Shown piece by piece: positions 35,352 to 44,976 of a stretch of 64,000 nt of DNA. The position numbers were made by a program, and so were the translations under genes. The stretch's first letter is position 1, and every line of letters starts with the position of its first letter. The notes under the pieces were generated by a model. The model ran no database searches and was not told the DNA's origin. It was given only the letters and a program-made list of their open reading frames with translations. Source of the DNA: Candidatus Eiseniibacteriota bacterium (GTDB lineage: Bacteria > Eisenbacteria > RBG-16-71-46 > CAIMUX01 > VGJL01); assembly GCA_041946735.1 (NCBI GenBank), contig JBHGAY010000007.1:100504-164503 (forward strand). Reading direction: 5' to 3'.

Positions 35352-36807
35352 GCTCGTGCGGCATGGGATCGAAGCGCGCCCGGAAGTACTTGTCGACCGG
35401 GTAGTGCAGGAAGTTCGAGACGCCGGCGGTATAGATGCATGCGAAGTCGCGCACCTGCGCGGCGAAGTGGCTCGGAGCGAGGCCGGTGTGGAACATCGGC
35501 CCCCATCGCTCGTTGTGGTCGCGCTCGATCTCGGACTGCAGCGTCCTGATCCGCGCCTCGAGCTGCACGATCTCCCCGCCGACCGACGCGAGGAGCTCGC
35601 CGACCGGCAACCTCCGGCCCCCCTCCAACGGAGGCCGGGCCACTCCCTCCTGCACGCGCTCGAGCAGATCGGAGACTCGCAGGAGGCCGTCGAGACGGTC
35701 CATCTGCCGTCGGAGAACGTTGCGGCGGCTCTGCTGCCTCTCCATGATCTCCAGCTCGCGCTGCAACTCCTGCACGATCATCGCCGTTCTCCAGAGACGC
35801 ACCCGCTTGGACTTGAGAATGTCCCCGTAGGTGTGATCGCCGAAGTACAGGATCTTGTCGCCCCCGCATCCGAGACGTCGCTCGAGGTCGCCGACGCTTC
35901 CTCCCGCGAACACCTTCGCTCCCTCGACCGCTTCTTCGCCGGCGCCCGCAAGCCGGATCGGGCGCGCTTCTCTCCGGCTGCGGAAGAACGCAGGCTTCCC
36001 CGCCCGGACGACGATGATGTCGAAGAAGTCGGTCCAGCGCGGGCGCTCGCGGAGCTTTCCATCCAGAAGGCGCCCGAGGATTTCCGCCGTGTACTCCGCT
36101 TCGGAGTTCGTCAGCAGGAAAAGGCGGAAGCCATGCTCCTTCATGCGATGCAGCGTGGCCGGCAGGTCGGGATCGACTCGCAGGTAGCGCTCCGGCTCGC
36201 GCGCAATCTCCGACTTTATGCTTCCGTCGGCATGGGCCTCGTCGATCGCCCCGCGGACTTGCTGGTACAGCGATCGGTAATCGCGAGGATGGCGTTTCGC
36301 ATCCTGGAGATCGACGAGCTGCGCATAGAGATCGATCTCGGGCAGCGAGAAGGGAGAGTCGACGGTGACGTAGTCACCCCGCGAGAAGCGGATCGGACGC
36401 CTCTGGTAGAGGCGCTTGCGCATCTCGTCGGGAAGAGGGCGTGTTCCATGGAAGGCGCGGGCGACGTAGCGATGCTGGTCCATCTTGAGGATGTTCCCTC
36501 GCGCCTTGTCGAGCACGAGGCCGCGGATGACGAACGAAGCGTCGTAGCGCATCGTGGCCAGCTCCGGATCGAGACCGGCCGTCACCAGCTTCCGCTTCGC
36601 CTCCTCGAACGCGAGTTCCTCGAAGGGAACGGTGTCGTAGAGGGCGAGGGTGTGATCCATGTCGAAGCCGATCGCCTGGATCGCGGAGAGGCGCAGATTG
36701 CGGTTCACGAAGATCCGTCGCGATAGCGGCAGGGTCGCGGCCTTCGCGAACGAATCCCAGGGCACGCGTCGCTTGCGTGAGGAAGGATCGAGTCTCGGCT
36801 GGAACAT
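35347..36807 (-). CDS. HAD-IG family 5'-nucleotidase (cN-II-like)
   Basis: IFVNRNL, GFDMDHTLALY, LLTNS, KPAFF, YFGDHTYGDI, WRTAMIVQEL. Confidence 0.93.
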   Translation of the reverse strand: MFQPRLDPSSRKRRVPWDSFAKAATLPLSRRIFVNRNLRLSAIQAIGFDMDHTLALYDTVPFEELAFEEAKRKLVTAGLDPELATMRYDASFVIRGLVLDKARGNILKMDQHRYVARAFHGTRPLPDEMRKRLYQRRPIRFSRGDYVTVDSPFSLPEIDLYAQLVDLQDAKRHPRDYRSLYQQVRGAIDEAHADGSIKSEIAREPERYLRVDPDLPATLHRMKEHGFRLFLLTNSEAEYTAEILGRLLDGKLRERPRWTDFFDIIVVRAGKPAFFRSRREARPIRLAGAGEEAVEGAKVFAGGSVGDLERRLGCGGDKILYFGDHTYGDILKSKRVRLWRTAMIVQELQRELEIMERQQSRRNVLRRQMDRLDGLLRVSDLLERVQEGVARPPLEGGRRLPVGELLASVGGEIVQLEARIRTLQSEIERDHNERWGPMFHTGLAPSHFAAQVRDFACIYTAGVSNFLHYPVDKYFRARFDPMPHER

Positions 36808-36880
36808 CGTGGCGGATGGTACGGGGCTTCCCGCTCGATGCTCAAGCGGGAAGCCCGGGGTTGGAGGGAGGAGGACTGCC

Positions 36881-37342
36881 TTAGCCGATTGCCGTGATTC
36901 TGTAGATCGAGAAGTGCGCTAGGTACGACGCTCTGCCTTCCGAGGTCGTCAGGCTCGGGATCGCGACGTACGTGCCCGCCGTCGGGTCGTACCACTGGAT
37001 CGTGAACGCGTCGGGATTGCCGGTCGCCTTCAAGCTCAGCGTCACGGGCGTGAGGAACCTCGTTCCGTCCGGACCTAGATCGACCCGGCCGTTGCCGCGC
37101 TGCGTCAGCGAAAGGGTCACCGACTTGCTGAGCGCCCCTGGAGGGACGAGGAGCGACGCGCCCGGAACCTGGAGGAACCCGCCGTCAGGACCGATGACCG
37201 CCGAGTCCGTCTCGACCGCCTCGGCCTCTCCGTGGATCTGGGTCTCTCCGGGGCCGCAGATTGGGGTGATCGAGTCCTGGGAGCAACCCAGCCCGAGGGG
37301 AGCCAACAGGGCCAGGCCTAGCAGCAGTCTCTTCGCCTTCAT
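36881..37342 (-). CDS. Lipoprotein with ZU5-like domain
   Basis: Lipobox LGLGC; IGPDGG.L...L.VPPGAL...LGPDGTRF..PVTL; C-terminal HFSIY; RBS GAGGAGGGAG. Confidence 0.78.
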   Translation of the reverse strand: MKAKRLLLGLALLAPLGLGCSQDSITPICGPGETQIHGEAEAVETDSAVIGPDGGFLQVPGASLLVPPGALSKSVTLSLTQRGNGRVDLGPDGTRFLTPVTLSLKATGNPDAFTIQWYDPTAGTYVAIPSLTTSEGRASYLAHFSIYRITAIG

Positions 37343-37396
37343 CGTTCTCTCCCTCCTCTGGTAAGGCAGAGTCTTCAGATGTTCTGGCCTGGCAGC

Positions 37397-37412
37397 GGCA
37401 GCTTCGGTGCCA
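37397..37412 (-). promoter_or_regulatory. sigma54 (-24/-12) promoter upstream of the lipoprotein
   Basis: Minus strand TGGCACC-GAAG-CTGCC, exact GG-N10-GC spacing. Confidence 0.65.
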
Positions 37413-37781
37413 AGTCATGGCATCTGCGGACGACGCTCGAGAACGGGCGAGGAATGAAGGACTTACGGAATCAAAAGGCCGGGAGTGCGCGCGGTGGGCC
37501 GGGACGATGTGGGGTCTTCCCCCACCTGACCTCCGGGCTCGCGGACGGACAGCCACGAAGCGAACCCGCGAGACCTCAGGAGGATCGCGAGGATGAGCGG
37601 CGGATCTCGGCCATTCGGGGGGACTTCCCCGCAATGAGGAGGCCGCGCTTCCGTCCGGGATGTCCGGTCGTCCGCGCGGCCCCTTGGTCCAGGATCTTTG
37701 GCGCCGGGCCTTGCCCTTCGCCGCGTCCGGGGTCCCCCGGCCAGCGTCCGGCGCCTTGGCTCGTTCTGTTCTTGCCCTCTA

Positions 37782-37850
37782 CTACCAGCCGGCCCGGCCG
37801 AGCGCGAGGTGCAGGAACCAGAACAGGAACATGAGACCTCCGAAGAACAT
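37782..37850 (-). CDS. Putative 22-aa hydrophobic peptide MFFGGLMFLFWFLHLALGRAGW
   Basis: Strong RBS GGAAGGAGGAAAGGAAA directly before ATG 37850; nearly all codons end in G/C; sigma54 promoter about 67 nt upstream. Confidence 0.65.
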   Translation of the reverse strand: MFFGGLMFLFWFLHLALGRAGW

Positions 37851-37916
37851 TTTCCTTTCCTCCTTCCAACCTGGGGGCGCCGCCCCCGTGACTCGATCCA
37901 ACCGCGCACGCATTGG

Positions 37917-37932
37917 AGCAGGCAGCATGCCA
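37917..37932 (-). promoter_or_regulatory. sigma54 (-24/-12) promoter upstream of the small peptide
   Basis: Minus strand TGGCATG-CTGC-CTGCT, exact GG-N10-GC spacing. Confidence 0.68.
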
Positions 37933-38055
37933 GGTCGTGCATTTCGCAACGCCGTCCACGAAGATCGTGCAAGACGCATTGACTTATTGGACTTACGGAA
38001 GGCCGCCACAGCGATCGGCTTCACGGGCGCGGGGCGGGCTTGCGGCAAGCGGAAA

Positions 38056-38089
38056 GCGCAGTTGACACCCGACATGGTGTCAACTGCGC
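38056..38089. promoter_or_regulatory. Perfect 14-bp inverted repeat (enhancer/UAS or terminator)
   Basis: GCGCAGTTGACACC-cgacat-GGTGTCAACTGCGC; a second IR GACAGTG-N8-CACTGTC at 38125-38146. Confidence 0.6.
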
Positions 38090-38173
38090 CAACCCTTGGT
38101 GGCCATTTGAGATGGAGAATCGGTGACAGTGACACGCGACACTGTCGCATATGGTTGACGCGATCGGGTCGAG

Positions 38174-39916
38174 CTACGCGGTCTCGGCCGCGCCTCCGGG
38201 GCGCTGCAAGCCATGCCGCCGGATCCGGTTGTGGAGATGCTGCCGTGAAATGCCGAGTGATTTGGCGGCCTTGCTGACGTTCCAGGAGTTGGAGCCCAGG
38301 GCGTCCACGAGGAGTTGCCTCTCCATATCCTCCCGGAGTCCCCGCAGACCCGCGTCGGGATTCACGGCCGTCCCAGGCGCCGTCCGGCGCTTCCCGGCAG
38401 CGAGCAGCAAATCCTCGACGTCCACAGCGCCGCCCGGTTCCAGGAACACGGCTACCCCCTCGAGAACGTTCCGCAGCTCGCGGACGTTTCCCGGCCAAGG
38501 GTTCTCGACGAGGAAACGGACAGCGGCAGGCGTGAAGCTCGATGGCGGCCGGTGGTGATCCCGGAGCCAGGACTGCAAGAAGTGCTCCGCGAGAAGCAGG
38601 ATGTCTTCTTGGCGGTCGCGCAGGGGCGGCACGGCGAGCGTCACGACGTGAAGCCGGTAATAGAGGTCTTCCCGGAACGTGCCGGATGCGACCGCCGCTT
38701 CGAGGTCCCGGTTGGTGGCCGAAAGGACGCGCACGTTCACGCGCCGCGTCTCGGTTTCGCCGACCCTGCGGATCTCCCGATTCTCCAGGACTCGAAGCAG
38801 CTTCACCTGGAGCGAGAGCGCCATTTCCCCAATCTCGTCCAGGAAGAGCGTTCCGCCCTCGGCCGCTTCGACGAGTCCCAGCTTGTTCTCGATGGATCCC
38901 GTGAAAGCGCCTTTGCGGTGGCCGAACAACTCGCTCTCGAGCAGAGGCTCCGGCAGGGCGCCGCAATGCACGACCTGGAACGGGGCGCTCGCCCGAGCGC
39001 TGCCCATGTGGATCGCCTGGGCGACGAGGTCCTTTCCCGTGCCTGTCTCCCCGAGGATCAGCACCGGGCAGTCGACTTCCTGCAGCTGCCCGATCCTGCG
39101 ACGGACCTCCTCGATCCTGCGGCTTCGCCCGAGAATGGCGCCGAGCCCGGCGGACCCGGGAAGCGCTCGACGCAGATCCCGATTCTCCCGTTCGAGTCCG
39201 GTTCGGGCGTCGACCAGGCGCCGGTGGAGCTGGGCGTTCTCTACGGCGATTGCGGCTTGCGCGGCGAACGCCTCGAGCACGCTCGAGTCTTGCAACGCCG
39301 GTAGGCTCTGCGCACGAGTGCTGTCGAGGTAGAGAACGCCGATCGCCGTCTCCCGCGACATCATCGGGACGCAGACGATCGTGTCGAGACCGAGCGCCGC
39401 GATGCTTTTCTGGTTCCGGTATGCATCGTTGTCGAGCGCCCCGGTGACCTTCTGGGTAACCCCTCGACCGAATGCCGACTGCGCGACAGACAAGGTGAAT
39501 GGGCTGGCAGCCGGATTCTCGATCCTCCCGCCATCGCGCTCGTGGCCGCATACCACCGAGAGCTTCCCAGCGCCGTCGTTGAGGAGGAGCAATCCTCGGT
39601 CGACTCCCGTGAGAGCGACGACTTCCTGGAGGATCTCGCCGAGCAGCGCATCGAGATCAAGGATGGAAGAGAGGGAGCGGGCGCAGCGAATGAGCCGCCC
39701 GAAGATCTCGTTCCTCTCCTCCAGAAGACCTTTCTCGCGGCGCATGCGCTCCACTTCGCGAGCCAGCTCGGTGTCAATGAGGCCGGAGCGCTCCGCGGAT
39801 GTCACTCCTCGGTTCAGACCTTGCAGCAACTCCTGGGCCTTGGAGCTGATCGAGGGAGCCGGCGGCTCCTGGACGGATTCCGGAAGCTTCTTCGTCGGGT
39901 CGGGGATCGGGTTCAT
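38174..39916 (-). CDS. GAF-domain sigma54-dependent enhancer-binding protein (Fis HTH)
   Basis: GAF (IVCVPM...IGVLYLDS...FAAQAAIAVEN), GETGTGKD, ESELFGHRKGAFTGS, LFLDEIGEM, FREDLYYRL, WPGNVREL, NVSKAAKSLGISR; ATGA overlap with the kinase gene. Confidence 0.95.
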   Translation of the reverse strand: MNPIPDPTKKLPESVQEPPAPSISSKAQELLQGLNRGVTSAERSGLIDTELAREVERMRREKGLLEERNEIFGRLIRCARSLSSILDLDALLGEILQEVVALTGVDRGLLLLNDGAGKLSVVCGHERDGGRIENPAASPFTLSVAQSAFGRGVTQKVTGALDNDAYRNQKSIAALGLDTIVCVPMMSRETAIGVLYLDSTRAQSLPALQDSSVLEAFAAQAAIAVENAQLHRRLVDARTGLERENRDLRRALPGSAGLGAILGRSRRIEEVRRRIGQLQEVDCPVLILGETGTGKDLVAQAIHMGSARASAPFQVVHCGALPEPLLESELFGHRKGAFTGSIENKLGLVEAAEGGTLFLDEIGEMALSLQVKLLRVLENREIRRVGETETRRVNVRVLSATNRDLEAAVASGTFREDLYYRLHVVTLAVPPLRDRQEDILLLAEHFLQSWLRDHHRPPSSFTPAAVRFLVENPWPGNVRELRNVLEGVAVFLEPGGAVDVEDLLLAAGKRRTAPGTAVNPDAGLRGLREDMERQLLVDALGSNSWNVSKAAKSLGISRQHLHNRIRRHGLQRPGGAAETA

Positions 39917-42900
39917 GGTAGGAAGACCTCCAGGTCGGTTGCGGCGCGGGGAAGCGAGCCCGCAGGAAGGGCCTCCCCGTTGCACCAGGCCAGGAAACGT
40001 CGCGGCTCCGGCAACAAGATGAAGGACTCACGCAGAGGATCGGACCCCACACGGTCGAGGTGCTCGCGAAGCGCGTCGCGAGCGTGGAGGATCGAGTCGA
40101 CGACCGCATAGTGGTCGCCCGCCCGTTGCTGCAGAGCCGCGTTCGCGGCGTGGATGCGCCACGGCCAGGAACCGAGACCGCTCTCGTTGGCGATGCGAGC
40201 CGCCTTCGTGAGCTTCTCCAGGGCGGCCTGATCCGCGAAGCGACCTTCTGCGGCGAGAATCATGGCTCCCACGAACGACAGGATGAGGGACAGTTCGCCG
40301 CGCTGTTGGGAGGTCATGAGAGAAGCGGCCTCGCCGGCGTCAGCTCTCGCCTGGTCTATGCGACCCAGAACGGAGGCGATCGCCGCGCGGTCGAGTAGGC
40401 CTCTCGCCTTCTCGTCCCAGGCTTCGAGCGCTTCCGCCGCCTCGATCGATTCCGTGAGAGTCTGCAACGCCTTCTCTGGATCGCCTTCGAGCCGGAGGAG
40501 GATGGCGCGCTGGCGGAGGGCGAAGGGACGGTCCAGCCCCGAGGTGGCCCCGTCGATCCAACCGGCGGTCGAGTCGAGAGCGGACCTGGCGGCGTCGAGC
40601 AGGCCGGCGGAAATCAGGATCGACGCCTCCAAGACTTGCGAGCTTGCCACCGCATCGGCATGCGGAGCGAGGGCGATTGCCTGTCTCGCCTGCTCGATCG
40701 CCTCGAGCCATTCGCCTTGCGAGGCCAGGACTGCGGCGAGGTTGTGGTGCCGGATCGAAGCACCAACAGGCGCACTGCTTTCACTGCACGCGGCGCGAAG
40801 AACCTCTGCACTCCTTGCGAGCTTCCCCTGCTCGTACCAGACTCCTCCGAGGTTCACGCGAGCGAGTTGCTGGTTCATCGCGTCGCCCGCCTCATCGGCG
40901 GCCTGGAGACAAAGTTCGAAGCATCGACAGGCTTCCTCGAAATTCCCTCGCTGAAAGGCGACGGACCCGAGGGCCGCAGACCCACGGGTACGCGCGGCAG
41001 GATCGGGAGAGTGAATCGCCTCGCGACAGATCACGCTGGCCTTCTCGACGATCTCCTCGTGTCCGGCCTGGGTGGCGAACGTGCAGAGCTGCGAGGCAGT
41101 AGCCAGGATCAGATGCAATGGTTCGCCAGACCTCCAAGCCCCGAGGAGGCGAGCACCGGCCGCGAAGGCCTCGGCCGATCGTCCGGTTTGAAGAAGGCCG
41201 GAGATCCTCATACCTTCCGCTCGCTGCTGCACCGGCGGATCCTGCTCCGCGACCTCCGCCAGGATCTCCAGCACGTCCTCCCATCTCGCCGCCCGGGCTG
41301 CGAGACGGGCTTCGAGGAGCCGCCGCACGTCCGGGCGAAGACGGGAAGCTTCACGCGCGAGGAGGGGGAAGCAGAGAGCGGGATCGGCGAGATCGATCGC
41401 GAGGAGCGCCTCCTTCTCCAGCAGATCGGCTGCCGCGTGCTCGCCGAGCCACTCGCGCGCTCCGGCGAGAAGCTGAACGGCCTCGCCGAGCCGCCCGGCG
41501 GCGCAGAGACGATCGACGGCCTCGCGCAGGGTGCGCTGCAGCGTGAAGCGATCGCGACCGGCTAGAGCGTGCTCCGCCTCGCTCACGACGTCGGCGCCCG
41601 CTCGCACGGCGAGGTCGCGATGGGCCGCGCGGACCTCCTCCTCACCCGCGACGACTCGCAGGCTTTCTGTATCCCAAGGAGGATCGCCGGGACGGACGCG
41701 ACCGTCACCGCTCGCGCTGCGGATCAAGCTCGCCCGCTCCAGCTCCGCTCGCTCCCCCGATTCGGCGGGCGCGGACGGCATCTCCTCCACGCGCCGCGCG
41801 GCCAGCGCCGAGGCGAGCGCCCGCCTCGCGCCTCCCGACAGGGACGCGCCGCTCGCCGCCGCGAGGCTTCGCCGCTGGCGCCGAGCCGCTCGGACCGCCT
41901 CCTCTCCCCCGCGCCTCTCCTCGATTCGCAGCCGGAGCAGGAGCGGAGTCCAGTCCGCTTCTCCCCCCTCCGGCTCGAGGCCATACGCCTCGAGAGCCGC
42001 GCGCGCTCCTTCCTCGCCGATCGCTCCCCTTTCGACCGTCCACTCGCCAGCGCGCCCCTTCCCGATGCGTGCGAGCAAGCGCCCATCGGAGGCAAGGAGC
42101 CGGCCGTCCTGCTCGACGATCGCATCGATCCCCTCGACTGCCGCCAGGGCTTGCAGCCGCTCGAGAAGCCGGCGCCGGCCGGACCCCTCGGGGCCCTCCA
42201 GCGCCCACGCGCGACCTTGTGCCAGGTCGGCGCGCCACTGCTCCTCGACCGCGACGTCGGGAACGAACGGAAGGTCGAGAGGAGCGGGCAGGACGGCGCG
42301 TTCGAGGTACCGTTCGCGGAAGCCTGCGACCAGATGCAGGGACCGCCACACGTCGAGGGCGCAGGCAGGCCGGCCGGCCGGATCGGGATCGAGCAGCGAC
42401 TCCACGATCCGGTCGCAACCCTCAGGGATCTCCGGAACACGATTGCGCAAACGCAAGCGCGGCCGCTGCTGGAGCTGGCGGATCTGGTCGGCGATCTCGC
42501 CGGTCCCGAGCGGGTTCTCTCCCGTCCAGATCTGCACGATGGTGGCGCCGAGAGCGTAGAGGTCCGCCCTGCGATCCCACGTCGAGTGGGACAGGATCTC
42601 CGGCGAGATGAACCCCCAGGTTCCGCGCGGGACGATCGGCTCGGCGAGCGGGGCGGCATAGCCCGGATCGATCAGGCAGGCCCCTCGGCGCTCGTGATGC
42701 AGGATCTGCGCGGGTTTGAGATCGAGATGCGCCAGCCCGAGCGCGTGAAGGACGGCGAGGGCGCCGAGGATCTGCTGAATCGCGTCGAGGCTGCGCGGAT
42801 CCCACCCGGGCGAATGGATTCCCCCGGGCGGCCCGCCGGAAATGTCCTCCATGCGATAGCCGGCCGCCCCGTCAGGAAGATGCACGAAGCCGAGCGGATG

Positions 42901-43125
42901 CACCCAGTGGGGATGGCGCAGCCTCTCGAGAAGCAGGAACTCCCGCGCGAGTCCCGCTCGTGTCGCCTCGCTCGCGCCCGGCCTCGCGAGCTTCAGCACC
43001 TCCGTGTGCCCGTCGGCGGCGTCGCGCAGGCGGAGCACCTCCCGCTCCTCGTTCTGGTAGATCCTCTCGAGGATCTCCAAGGATCGGGAGCCGGGAAGCC
43101 CGGCCATGGCCGTCCGCGACGCCAT
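39913..43125 (-). CDS. Ser/Thr kinase-like, degenerate P-loop and TPR protein
   Basis: VLK, HLDLKPAQIL, IDPGYA, GTWGFISPE, ADLYALG; GPEGSGRRRLL; C-terminal TPR helices (VNLGGVWYEQGKL). Start ATG 43125 (or 43107). Confidence 0.85.
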   Translation of the reverse strand: MASRTAMAGLPGSRSLEILERIYQNEEREVLRLRDAADGHTEVLKLARPGASEATRAGLAREFLLLERLRHPHWVHPLGFVHLPDGAAGYRMEDISGGPPGGIHSPGWDPRSLDAIQQILGALAVLHALGLAHLDLKPAQILHHERRGACLIDPGYAAPLAEPIVPRGTWGFISPEILSHSTWDRRADLYALGATIVQIWTGENPLGTGEIADQIRQLQQRPRLRLRNRVPEIPEGCDRIVESLLDPDPAGRPACALDVWRSLHLVAGFRERYLERAVLPAPLDLPFVPDVAVEEQWRADLAQGRAWALEGPEGSGRRRLLERLQALAAVEGIDAIVEQDGRLLASDGRLLARIGKGRAGEWTVERGAIGEEGARAALEAYGLEPEGGEADWTPLLLRLRIEERRGGEEAVRAARRQRRSLAAASGASLSGGARRALASALAARRVEEMPSAPAESGERAELERASLIRSASGDGRVRPGDPPWDTESLRVVAGEEEVRAAHRDLAVRAGADVVSEAEHALAGRDRFTLQRTLREAVDRLCAAGRLGEAVQLLAGAREWLGEHAAADLLEKEALLAIDLADPALCFPLLAREASRLRPDVRRLLEARLAARAARWEDVLEILAEVAEQDPPVQQRAEGMRISGLLQTGRSAEAFAAGARLLGAWRSGEPLHLILATASQLCTFATQAGHEEIVEKASVICREAIHSPDPAARTRGSAALGSVAFQRGNFEEACRCFELCLQAADEAGDAMNQQLARVNLGGVWYEQGKLARSAEVLRAACSESSAPVGASIRHHNLAAVLASQGEWLEAIEQARQAIALAPHADAVASSQVLEASILISAGLLDAARSALDSTAGWIDGATSGLDRPFALRQRAILLRLEGDPEKALQTLTESIEAAEALEAWDEKARGLLDRAAIASVLGRIDQARADAGEAASLMTSQQRGELSLILSFVGAMILAAEGRFADQAALEKLTKAARIANESGLGSWPWRIHAANAALQQRAGDHYAVVDSILHARDALREHLDRVGSDPLRESFILLPEPRRFLAWCNGEALPAGSLPRAATDLEVFLP

Positions 43126-43136
43126 CCTTCGACCGT

Positions 43137-44864
43137 CTACCTGCGGATCACCCGCACCGCAGCCGCCTGTCCGGACGGAGCCGTCCAGCGCAGCCAATAC
43201 ACGCCGGCGGCGAGGCGGCGTCCGCCGCGGTCCGCGCCGTCCCAAGAGAGCGTCGAGGCTCCGGCAGTCCACGAACGGATGCGCCGTCCCTGGACGTCGA
43301 GCAGCTCGAGCGAACCGTCCGCCTCCGCCGCGCCCACCCCTTCGAGCAAGATGGTCGCCGCGCCGCTGGACGGATTGGGGGAGACGAGGAGGCGAATCGT
43401 CCCGATCGGAGCGAGTTCCGCGACGAGCGAGGGGTCGCGGTGATTGAGGAAGAGGTACTCCCCTTCCGAAGGATCCCAGTTGGAAAGCGCGAGATCGATG
43501 TCGGCGCTGCTCACGTAGATCGCGCGCACGCTCGCTCCGACGGGCGGCGCGGATGGCAGGACGATCCAGGCGTCGTCGGCGTCCAGCTCGATCTGGTCCG
43601 GATCGACCGGCACTCCGTCGACGGTGAGCGAGACGATCTCCCGCACCGGCCGCTGTGGCAGCGTGAAGAGCTTGCGTGAACCGCTCGCGGTCCAGGTCGC
43701 GTCGAGCGCCGCCTGCAGGCCGTCGTTGTCCACGTCCTCCCAGACCTCGTTCTCGATCACGCTGCTCGTCGCGGTCGTGAAGGCCGGGCTCGTCGCCAGC
43801 GCTCCGCCGAGGTTCTCGTAGATCCGGACCGGCCCCCACCACATGCCGGTCGCGAGATCCAGGTCGCCGTCCTCGTCGAGGTCGATCCAGGAGACATGCG
43901 AACCGTAGCCGGTCTGCGCCGATTGCCAGATCGGCGTGGCGCCGAGCGTCCCGCCGGCGTTGCGGTAGACCTTGAAGTGGCCGCTTCCGCCGAGCTGGTT
44001 GTTGTCGGCGATCGCGAGGTCCACCCATCCGTCGGCATCGTAGTCGCCCGCGGCAGCCGTGTTGGCGTAGAGCGAGGCGTCGCCCGAAGACCAGCCGGCC
44101 GAAGGCTCCAGCGTTCCCTCCTCATTGAAATAGACTCGGTTGGGCCCGGAGGAACCGGCGAAGGCCAGGTCGAGCCAGCCGTCGTTGTTGAAGTCCGCCC
44201 AGGTGACATCGAGCGAGTACTCGATCTCGCTGCTCATCCAGGACGGCATCGTTTCCAGCGCCCCTCCCACGTTGCGGAACAGGCGTCTCCTCTCCGGATT
44301 GCCGTTGTAATCCTCCCCCGTGGCGCAGGCGAGGTCGGGACGTCCATCGTTGTCTACGTCTCCGAAGGCGCACGAGAAGCAGTAGAACGATTCGGCCGAC
44401 TGCCAGACCGGCGTCGCGCTGAACGTCCCGTCCCCGTTGCCCTTGTAGAGCTTCACTCTGCCCGGCTGGCTGAACCCGCCGCTCCCCAGATAGACCGCGA
44501 CCGCGCAGTCGAGCGCCCCGTCGCCGTCCACGTCGGCCAGATCGAGGTGGCCGTGGTAATCCACGTCTTGCGAGGTCCAGGTGGGAGCCGCGGCGTAGGT
44601 GCCGTCCCCCTGGTTGCGGTAGACGGCCACGTTCTGGCGGGCCATGTCGTTGCCGTTGGCGACGACGAGGTCGACCCAGCCGTCCCGGTCCAGGTCGCCG
44701 ACAGCGAAGCCCGTCCCGTATAGGTTGTTGGGGTTCGATTCCCAGTCCGGAGTGGAGGAGAGCGAGAAGGTGGCGGCGGCAGGACCGGCGAAAAGCATCG
44801 CGAGAATCAGGGCGGGGAGCAGGCTTCGGCGGACGGGACACAGCCAAGCGCTCCGGCGCGGCAT
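43137..44864 (-). CDS. Exported FG-GAP/VCBS repeat protein with FlgD-Ig/T9SS-like C-terminal domain
   Basis: Signal peptide; repeats GDLDRDGWVDLVVAN, DVDGDGALDCAV, DFNNDGWLDL; C-terminus VSPNPSSG...LLDVQGRRIR...WDGADRGGRRLAAGVYWLR. Confidence 0.9.
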   Translation of the reverse strand: MPRRSAWLCPVRRSLLPALILAMLFAGPAAATFSLSSTPDWESNPNNLYGTGFAVGDLDRDGWVDLVVANGNDMARQNVAVYRNQGDGTYAAAPTWTSQDVDYHGHLDLADVDGDGALDCAVAVYLGSGGFSQPGRVKLYKGNGDGTFSATPVWQSAESFYCFSCAFGDVDNDGRPDLACATGEDYNGNPERRRLFRNVGGALETMPSWMSSEIEYSLDVTWADFNNDGWLDLAFAGSSGPNRVYFNEEGTLEPSAGWSSGDASLYANTAAAGDYDADGWVDLAIADNNQLGGSGHFKVYRNAGGTLGATPIWQSAQTGYGSHVSWIDLDEDGDLDLATGMWWGPVRIYENLGGALATSPAFTTATSSVIENEVWEDVDNDGLQAALDATWTASGSRKLFTLPQRPVREIVSLTVDGVPVDPDQIELDADDAWIVLPSAPPVGASVRAIYVSSADIDLALSNWDPSEGEYLFLNHRDPSLVAELAPIGTIRLLVSPNPSSGAATILLEGVGAAEADGSLELLDVQGRRIRSWTAGASTLSWDGADRGGRRLAAGVYWLRWTAPSGQAAAVRVIRR

Positions 44865-44947
44865 GGAAGACCTCCTTGCGATGGGCTGCTCGATGTCCTT
44901 CCAGAGCCGACCGGTACGCGCATCGGCTGGACTCGTTGCGCGACTAG

Positions 44948-44976
44948 AGTTTAGTGACGGCGCGGAAATGTGTCAA
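44948..44976 (-). promoter_or_regulatory. sigma70-type promoter for the FG-GAP/kinase/bEBP operon
   Basis: TTGACA-17 nt-TAAACT. Confidence 0.75.

Follow-up and report, generated by a model that had tools for sequence, protein, structure and literature searches.

A sigma54-type regulatory cassette within 64,000 nucleotides (nt) of DNA from Candidatus Eiseniibacteriota bacterium (assembly GCA_041946735.1, contig JBHGAY010000007.1, positions 100,504 to 164,503; this whole stretch is called the window below) ends, behind its regulators, with genes for a hydrophobic peptide of 22 amino acids (aa) and a lipoprotein. Comparison of sequences brought out one C-terminal tag, G[RK]AGW, on two unrelated carriers, namely hydrophobic micropeptides, that of the cassette included, and ZU5-fold lipoproteins, where it comes a few residues behind the motif HFS, and it is by this tag, common to most paralogues of the cassette lipoprotein, that peptide and lipoprotein are connected. 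An earlier note, made from the letters of the window alone, overlooked this connection and described a self-contained circuit leading from sensor to activator to peptide and lipoprotein with no histidine kinase. The reading preferred here, which we hold to be evenly balanced between right and wrong, is that the kinase-TPR protein and the GAF-domain activator of the cassette induce a trans-acting G[RK]AGW ligand for sensors with the MASE9 membrane domain. In the window's genome the receptor is probably an orphan MASE9 histidine kinase encoded on another contig, which runs against the supposed lack of a histidine kinase. No description of a tag/ZU5/MASE9 system or of the cassette was found in the literature searched, which covered few subscription journals.

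Micropeptides Ending in G[RK]AGW

The host genome comprises 4.89 Mb, is 95% complete and carries all features of the cassette on the minus strand of one contig. The peptide MFFGGLMFLFWFLHLALGRAGW is encoded by a 22-codon open reading frame (ORF) with strong ribosome site (37782..37850, minus strand). The pattern of ribosome site, start codon and RAGW followed by stop was detected in 40 of 206 genomes of the phylum, versus 2 for the reversed control, and inspection by eye left as in-frame and hydrophobic the matches in the window's family, in 12 of 13 genomes of the families designated f2, f4 and f7, and in five genomes related at the class level, the others being attributed to chance. Peptides encoded behind sigma54-type promoters have 19-25 aa and are all hydrophobic; Arg, Ala and the first Gly of their tails are encoded by several synonymous codons, and selection at the protein level is supported by the sequences compared. 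In metagenomes 34 stretches match the pattern, 17 of them in frame and 12 of these hydrophobic (five polar in-frame matches, three of which were inspected, were excluded as probable shadow frames). All 12 fall into familiar surroundings: nine have the sigma54 or cassette context and three lie beside the gene preceding an HD-GYP operon, two of the set being repeats of the peptides of genomes G013 and G002. None of three named genomes outside the phylum contains the pattern.

The second context of the peptide is found in distant genomes, where it is placed between a two-domain gene without family match and a gene for a membrane HD-GYP protein. Among 30 loci of the two-domain gene, 29 have a readable downstream region; a G[RK]AGW-type peptide follows in all 29 and MASE9-HD-GYP comes next in 28. 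In the window's genome the two-domain gene (C25:45329-46069) directly precedes a purM-like frame, with neither peptide nor HD-GYP gene between. This two-domain protein occurs in 147 of 206 genomes of the phylum and, like the peptide and the lipoprotein, finds no match in NCBIfam, nor has it one in Pfam; its C-terminal half presumably resembles the LeuA regulatory domain. The window's genome also encodes an HD-GYP protein that lacks MASE9 and has a long linker of Asn-Gly repeats (C12:160895-162790). Peptides of family f15 and of locus L291 contain two or three tandem cores ending with GW or WW, as in multi-core precursors.

Tandem copies of the peptide gene occur, there are copies with terminator-like hairpins or convergent genes behind them, and one genome (G037) has both the sigma54 and the HD-GYP context; action in trans is favoured on these grounds.

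ZU5-Fold Lipoproteins as the Second Carrier

The last gene of the cassette (36881..37342, minus strand) specifies a lipoprotein for which the structural model (pLDDT 87.5) gives a ZU5/GAIN-superfamily fold. The best superpositions were obtained with ankyrin ZU5 (Z 13.7, root mean square deviation (rmsd) 2.3, 111 residues aligned), the GAIN domain of CD97 (Z 10.4) and UNC5b (Z 10.2); Foldseek retrieved ankyrin-B ZU5 with E 2e-6 and the Atlas rows concur. ZU5, GPS and Nup98 domains are handled as one autoproteolytic superfamily (excerpt of PMC3482391), for which His at position -2 and Ser or Thr at +1 are required (excerpt of PMC9539791); the window lipoprotein has His and Ser at these positions of the predicted cut, within its HFS.

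The tag is absent from all 10 copies of the cassette lipoprotein and characterizes its paralogues encoded elsewhere. Two paralogues of the same genome, on contigs C18 and C71, end with HFS-x-Y-A-A-G-R-A-G-W, the first gene having a stand-alone MASE9-like gene as its immediate downstream neighbour and the second a strict -24/-12 site. Two sets of non-cassette paralogue loci, six of which are shared, have the terminal tag in 21 of 24 and 18 of 20 cases, respectively. Search of 1.84 billion representatives with a profile (E 1e-10) gave 2580 matches; HFS is present in 146 of the best 150, of which 122 end with [RK][ASGN]GW (82 of these having a 10-residue tail), 7 with another xGW and 8 have the tag just inside the end, these being counts from a ranking that favours the tag because the profile includes the tail. 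Beyond the phylum, five named genomes yielded only tail-less ZU5 matches, in one of the five.

MASE9 Proteins as Candidate Receptors

The paper describing MASE9, the only one in the literature searched that uses the name, proposes that a ligand is bound within the membrane, and its excerpt consulted here names neither a ligand nor an upstream small gene (bioRxiv 10.1101/2021.11.05.467447). Fusions with HD-GYP and GGDEF-EAL are presented there; the set considered here also includes stand-alone and histidine-kinase forms. The Pfam model PF20972 recovers two stand-alone relatives above cut-off and one HD-GYP copy weakly and has no match in the two copies of the window's genome, which join the family via a profile built for this analysis (E 9.5e-48 and 7e-26).

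Among the 30 top-scoring MASE9 loci a tag ends no more than 700 nt upstream in 16, the opposite-strand control giving 0 of 30; the other 14 have a tagged ZU5 gene directly downstream (6), variants (3) or nothing (5). With the 8 loci that fed the query set aside, a strict upstream tag is retained in 14 of 22. The same association can be traced at the level of genomes: 19 of 20 genomes in families f1, f2 and f4 encode MASE9, the exception being 56% complete, while none of the 15 genomes of family f3 does; full-length tagged ZU5 is likewise absent from f3 (0 of 15), and two matches to the peptide pattern there were judged to be polar or not in frame. It is the MASE9 histidine kinase that is retained throughout f1, f2 and f4. 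In eight loci of family f18 a stand-alone MASE9 gene is followed by a tagged ZU5 gene, two of them being also preceded by one, and in genome G015 a near-identical ZU5-MASE9 pair occupies two sites, as a recent duplication or an assembly duplicate.

Alignment of MASE9 (14 rows) has invariant W, E, N, N and W. Its structural model superimposes on NikM2 with Z 14.5 and rmsd 3.2 over 188 residues, and the top 15 structures (Z 8.1-14.5) are all S components of energy-coupling factor (ECF) transporters or ECF complexes, by which MASE9 is predicted to adopt the S-component fold. A nine-residue loop fills the pocket of NikM2 (excerpt of PMC3945884), giving a precedent for a peptide in this fold. By analogy with this N-terminal loop of NikM, the tag would enter the outward pocket of MASE9 and thereby alter the output domain, a step we judge slightly favoured over its opposite. 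In the order to which the window's genome belongs, where MASE9-HD-GYP is missing beside its usual neighbour, the remaining fused receptor would be the conserved MASE9 histidine kinase.

The tagged ZU5 lipoproteins would, with somewhat better prospects, self-cleave at HF/S and retain a tethered ligand of about 10 residues, the micropeptide being a membrane-anchored shortcut to the same signal and the tail-less lipoprotein of the cassette a co-induced decoy or replacement. Adhesion GPCRs are activated by tethered agonists according to the Stachel mechanism. Taken to the full, the parallel gives a two-gene analogue in which a self-cut, lipid-anchored ZU5/GAIN protein holds a 10-residue agonist read by a MASE9 peptide receptor with cyclic di-GMP phosphodiesterase or histidine-kinase output, and the sigma54 cassette bypasses the tether with a free membrane micropeptide and an empty ZU5 decoy; this complete picture is tentative and, as a whole, less likely than not.

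Several observations weigh against the preferred reading. The joint absence in f3 is a single loss event. For the long, kinase-type MASE9, which is the form assumed to be the receptor, a tag was found within about 1.5 kb in 0 of 19 loci, so that it is co-occurrence in genomes that pairs the tag with this kinase. MASE9 is a neighbour at just 3 of 20 ZU5 paralogue loci of one set and, within 1.5-kb flanks, 7 of 24 of the other. Foldseek relates MASE9 to S components weakly (best E 0.078), and a shared fold by itself shows no function. Three cassette lipoproteins of f2 have no HFS, and as they were left out of alignment A4, its 29 of 29 for HFS is a selected count. Of the 22 peptide promoters just 13 have the canonical GC at -12. 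GGC is the codon for the Gly that precedes Trp in 22 of 22 sigma54-type peptides, 43 of 52 ZU5 tails and 18 of 26 HD-GYP-type peptides, compared with 98 of 237 in genes of the window, and this points to a possible constraint at the level of RNA or translation. Finally, the peptide has no positive charge at its N-terminus and a single Arg close to its C-terminus, so that the C-terminus would rather be expected in the cytoplasm, opposite to the side on which an outward pocket opens.

The Kinase-TPR Protein and the Sigma54 Activator

The first regulator (39913..43107, with an in-frame alternative start at 43125; minus strand) is a putative Hanks-type kinase of 1064 aa in all, with a degenerate STAND remnant and TPR repeats (Pfam Pkinase, TPR). 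Kinase residues K39, E56, D129 and D147 are invariant in all 15 rows of the alignment; the catalytic-loop Asn is replaced by Gln in 13 of 15 rows, that of the window protein included, and the Gly-rich loop is absent from the window protein. Of the kinase-NTPase-TPR architecture proposed in the earlier note the NTPase is degenerate: in the window protein and four orthologues of the family the Walker A Lys is changed to Arg (GxxGxGR), the domain is shortened and no Pfam match is found, so the window protein does not present the combination of Walker A Lys, Walker B and full domain by which STAND NTPases are recognized.

The activator gene (38174..39916, minus strand) overlaps the preceding one by ATGA and encodes 580 aa with GAF, AAA+ and Fis-type helix-turn-helix (HTH) domains (Pfam Sigma54_activat E 1.3e-67, GAF, HTH_8). 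Scoring 227 bits against a PF00158 cut-off of 20.2 and having an intact GAFTG loop (GAFTGS) conserved in the alignment, it is a predicted sigma54 bacterial enhancer-binding protein. Its orthologues in four family genomes are 57-61% identical, and it is the sole one with the SRQHLHNR helix among 22 listed activators of the genome. For all 25 NCBIfam equivalog families listed it falls below cut-off (NifA 361.6 vs 528.85). Neither regulator has a clear membrane segment. Because PF00158 has 33 matches in the genome, 30 of them strong, promoters cannot be assigned to this activator by adjacency alone.

Relationship between the two regulators is elucidated by a class-level relative (G036), where both window proteins map end to end onto one fused protein of 1716 aa with intact Walker A. 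The window kinase-TPR gene is thus, as judged from alignment, the N-terminal half of a fused kinase-STAND-TPR-GAF-sigma54 architecture, and its product would likely serve as the input half of the activator, gating it by contact or phosphorylation. The fused gene is followed by a -24/-12-like site and a hydrophobic, Pro-rich ORF of 63 aa with strong ribosome site. Within the order the genes for kinase and activator generally adjoin, being reversed in 8 genomes and apart in 2. A frameshift artefact as the origin of the split was considered and rejected: the overlap and both gene ends are kept in the family, and the order is reversed in those 8 genomes.

Promoters and the Predicted Enhancer

Of 18 strict -24/-12 matches in the whole 4.89-Mb genome two, 520 bp apart, belong to the cassette: one before the peptide gene (37917..37932) and one before the lipoprotein gene (37397..37412), both on the minus strand and conserved as sequence patterns. 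Alignment of five family spacers shows that the two sites are kept together with the ribosome site, start codon and final five codons of the peptide gene, the remainder having diverged. The small number of sites genome-wide and the retention of these elements, as well as of the sigma70 site, amid diverged sequence imply more than chance. The genome also has rpoN, without which the circuit of the earlier note would have failed.

Promoters and enhancers were compared over 22 peptide loci from 19 genomes, taking the first copy per transcript; second tandem copies were excluded, as were a locus at the start of a contig and five loci of HD-GYP type. The GG and GC columns of the first -24/-12 site are invariant in the five family members, and a YGGCAY box, 57-123 nt ahead of the start codon, is common to all 22 sigma54 peptide loci, versus 1 of 5 HD-GYP-type loci. 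The palindrome GTC-N10-GAC was found 31 times, in 21 of the 22 loci, versus 2.6 +/- 1.6 in shuffled sequences and at most 10 for other spacings; its usual place is about 310 nt ahead of the peptide start, and a further site about 220 nt ahead is frequent. In the window this predicted enhancer (38143..38160) is 211 nt upstream of the first -24 element. The inverted repeats pointed out earlier do exist, one being a perfect 14-bp repeat (38056..38089) that occupies the second enhancer position of many relatives, but the repeat itself is not conserved and the conserved element is GTC-N10-GAC instead. The activator would very probably drive the peptide promoter through this palindrome, and peptide copies elsewhere that share the enhancer would form its regulon. 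Such enhancer-bearing loci also occur far from the activator in six genomes, at odds with a self-contained cassette.

The lipoprotein promoter is kept in all five family members, and the 369 nt preceding it in the window contain no enhancer motif; which activator it uses is uncertain. Of the proposed circuit from sensor to activator to peptide and lipoprotein the first branch is supported, conserved enhancer and -24/-12 site making control of the peptide promoter very probable; the missing enhancer between peptide and lipoprotein promoter speaks against self-containment. An identical stretch of 12 nt is found about 50-60 nt upstream of both -24 elements (37989-38000 and 37459-37470); it is not kept as such in relatives and could be a site for a bending protein. 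IHF sites are weakly represented (4 of 22 peptide loci vs 1.4 expected). Consensus scan of 36700-38300 revealed no intrinsic terminators. In genome G008 three -24/-12 sites, about 500-600 nt apart (10581, 11096 and 11699), are arranged between activator and kinase, only the second being tied to a tagged peptide.

Layout and Conservation of the Cassette

All elements attributed to the cassette previously, from the sigma70 promoter, FG-GAP, kinase-TPR and GAF activator genes with their ATGA coupling to the two -24/-12 sites, micro-ORF and lipoprotein gene, were located where they had been placed. The regulator operon begins with a predicted sigma70-type promoter (TTGACA, 17 nt, -10 box; 44948..44976, minus strand), a pattern seen at all 6 family loci tested and at 4 of 8 from the rest of the order. 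Its first gene (43137..44864, minus strand) encodes a secreted FG-GAP repeat protein with FlgD-Ig tail (Pfam FG-GAP_3 E 6.6e-44), an optional member present at 5 of 5 family loci versus 5 of 15 cassette loci outside the family, in further disagreement with a self-contained unit. The complete cassette lies between the same flanking genes in four of the five other family genomes, and in the fifth, which is 75% complete, the sequence ends within the kinase gene; four other family genera thus keep the order of the genes, the two sigma54 sites and the 22-aa ORF beside orthologous activators, as expected from the earlier note. The genes beyond the lipoprotein, encoding a 5'-nucleotidase (36807-35347) and an outer-membrane beta-barrel protein (35018-34161), are found downstream of the cassette in the family only. 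On the other side, four short direct repeats starting with CTGACG come after the stop codon of a glycosyltransferase gene (45175-45115). A scan of named genomes with the activator gave only remote activators of 33-51% identity and no cassette.

Alternative Explanations

The foremost alternative, which we deem unlikely, is a feedback loop: the peptide or tail would be bound by the TPR or GAF part of its own regulator, in an RRNPP-like or AfsS-like autoinduction, and stand-alone MASE9 would be an S-component importer. The location of the peptide gene directly behind the activator in most cassettes, the presence of a TPR partner, and the transporter-type fold of MASE9 together with its occurrence without output domain agree with this, as does the binding of AfsS to AfsR (excerpt of PMC10832544). 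It is opposed by seven genomes (G002, G005, G009, G011, G017, G027 and G029) that have only the long MASE9 form, by most phylum peptides, which belong to the HD-GYP operon and have no regulator of this kind in their vicinity, and by the unrelated Pro-rich ORF behind the fused regulator of G036.

Still less probable is that G[RK]AGW-stop acts in cis as a ribosome arrest or leader signal of the SecM type that gates the next gene, the lipoprotein forms being secretion monitors. RAG does make up three residues of the SecM RAGP (excerpt of PMC12992588), the peptide precedes MASE9-HD-GYP, and the GGC bias would fit. According to the same excerpt, however, Arg is irreplaceable in RAPP-type and SecM motifs, which place Arg and Pro within or beside the stall site. 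The tag has no Pro and often has Lys instead of Arg (24 of 52 ZU5 tails and 17 of 26 HD-GYP peptides; 41 of 78 outside the sigma54 set), so it does not fit the RAPP/RAGP motif. Moreover, MASE9 is upstream of the tagged gene in six loci, hairpins or convergent genes lie behind many of the tagged genes, and no covarying RNA structure was found in 16 sigma54-type transcripts, the window leader having z 0.33. Selection on the stop codons of the peptides (TAA in 10 of 22, enriched) was entertained and dropped, TAG accounting for 219 of 524 stops in the long frames of the genome.

Short hydrophobic peptides of such size include type I toxins and stress proteins, and with about the same low probability the peptide and the lipoprotein may be regarded as unrelated ordinary sigma54 outputs, that is, a membrane-active stress or toxin-like peptide and a structural surface ZU5 protein. 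The cassette lipoprotein, having neither tag nor enhancer of its own, suits this proposal, which leaves unexplained why two carriers share five residues, why the cores are repeated in f15, why tagged genes adjoin MASE9 and why tag and MASE9 are absent together in f3.

C-terminal sorting signals such as PEP-CTERM and GlyGly-CTERM, and the Trp-modification site of ComX, are well known. The least probable proposal makes the tag such a sorting or modification signal with MASE9 as processing or anchoring partner, and the strictly C-terminal position of the tag on exported carriers, the stand-alone MASE9 genes adjoining tagged lipoproteins and the invariant polar residues in the membrane domain are outweighed here by the fusion of most MASE9 to HD-GYP or kinase outputs, the lack of any invariant Cys, His or Ser in its 14 aligned rows, the lack of a transmembrane helix with the lipoprotein tag and the absence of the tag from any other cargo type among the listed frames of the window's genome.

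Relation to Known Systems

With the tag taken as a candidate trans-acting ligand for MASE9 sensors, the cassette can be compared with systems already described. With GAF activators of the NifA/NorR/FhlA class it shares GAF-AAA+-Fis HTH organization, intact GAFTG and a palindrome about 200 nt before -24/-12; unlike them, the window activator is coupled to a kinase-TPR protein, has a 22-aa peptide as its probable main target and stays below the equivalog cut-offs. To the fused Pkinase-STAND-TPR-GAF-sigma54-HTH protein of G036 the window pair corresponds end to end, and a small ORF follows both, but the window form consists of two genes occurring in either order, its Walker A is degenerate and its peptide is unrelated to the Pro-rich type.

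Streptomyces AfsK/AfsR/AfsS offers a kinase, a NOD/STAND-TPR regulator and a small protein gene activated by the regulator (excerpts of PMC10832544 and PMC10936776). AfsR, however, is a SARP, while the window output is a sigma54 activator with no match to SARP/BTAD or Trans_reg_C families, and AfsS binds AfsR, while the window peptide tracks with a membrane sensor.

On the lipoprotein side, the models share with ZU5/GAIN/Nup98 domains the fold, His at -2 and Ser at +1, and a short C-terminal strand that would stay bound. Unlike the situation in adhesion GPCRs, the tail would be a free 10-mer on a lipoprotein and the receptor a separate protein of S-component fold. Known bacterial ZU5 domains have been described in toxins and large surface proteins; here they form lipoproteins.

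MgrB and SafA are small membrane proteins modulating sensor kinases, SHP/Rgg, ComS and AgrD represent peptide pheromones, and in RRNPP systems a cognate TPR receptor binds the processed peptide. The window peptide resembles MgrB, SafA and the pheromones in being short and hydrophobic, in having a promoter to itself and in its proposed action on a sensor, and differs from them in having no family match, sharing its tag with lipoproteins and having no adjoining processing or export gene in sight; the TPR repeats of the window kinase protein invite the RRNPP comparison.

Implications

What is new are the relocation to sigma54 control with its enhancer, the tag shared with ZU5 lipoproteins, its joint absence with MASE9, and the predicted S-component fold. 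That the peptide gene has left the HD-GYP operon and come under a sigma54 promoter of its own may be considered as a natural experiment, favouring a trans-acting product over a cis leader. The tag becomes a candidate for the MASE9 signal, and the five-residue tag, the 10-mer and the 22-mer can all be synthesized. Should the ZU5 tails be ligands made by cleavage, tethered-peptide signalling would be a role of the ZU5/GAIN fold in bacteria too and, if the proposal is true, the S-component transporter fold would double as a peptide receptor.

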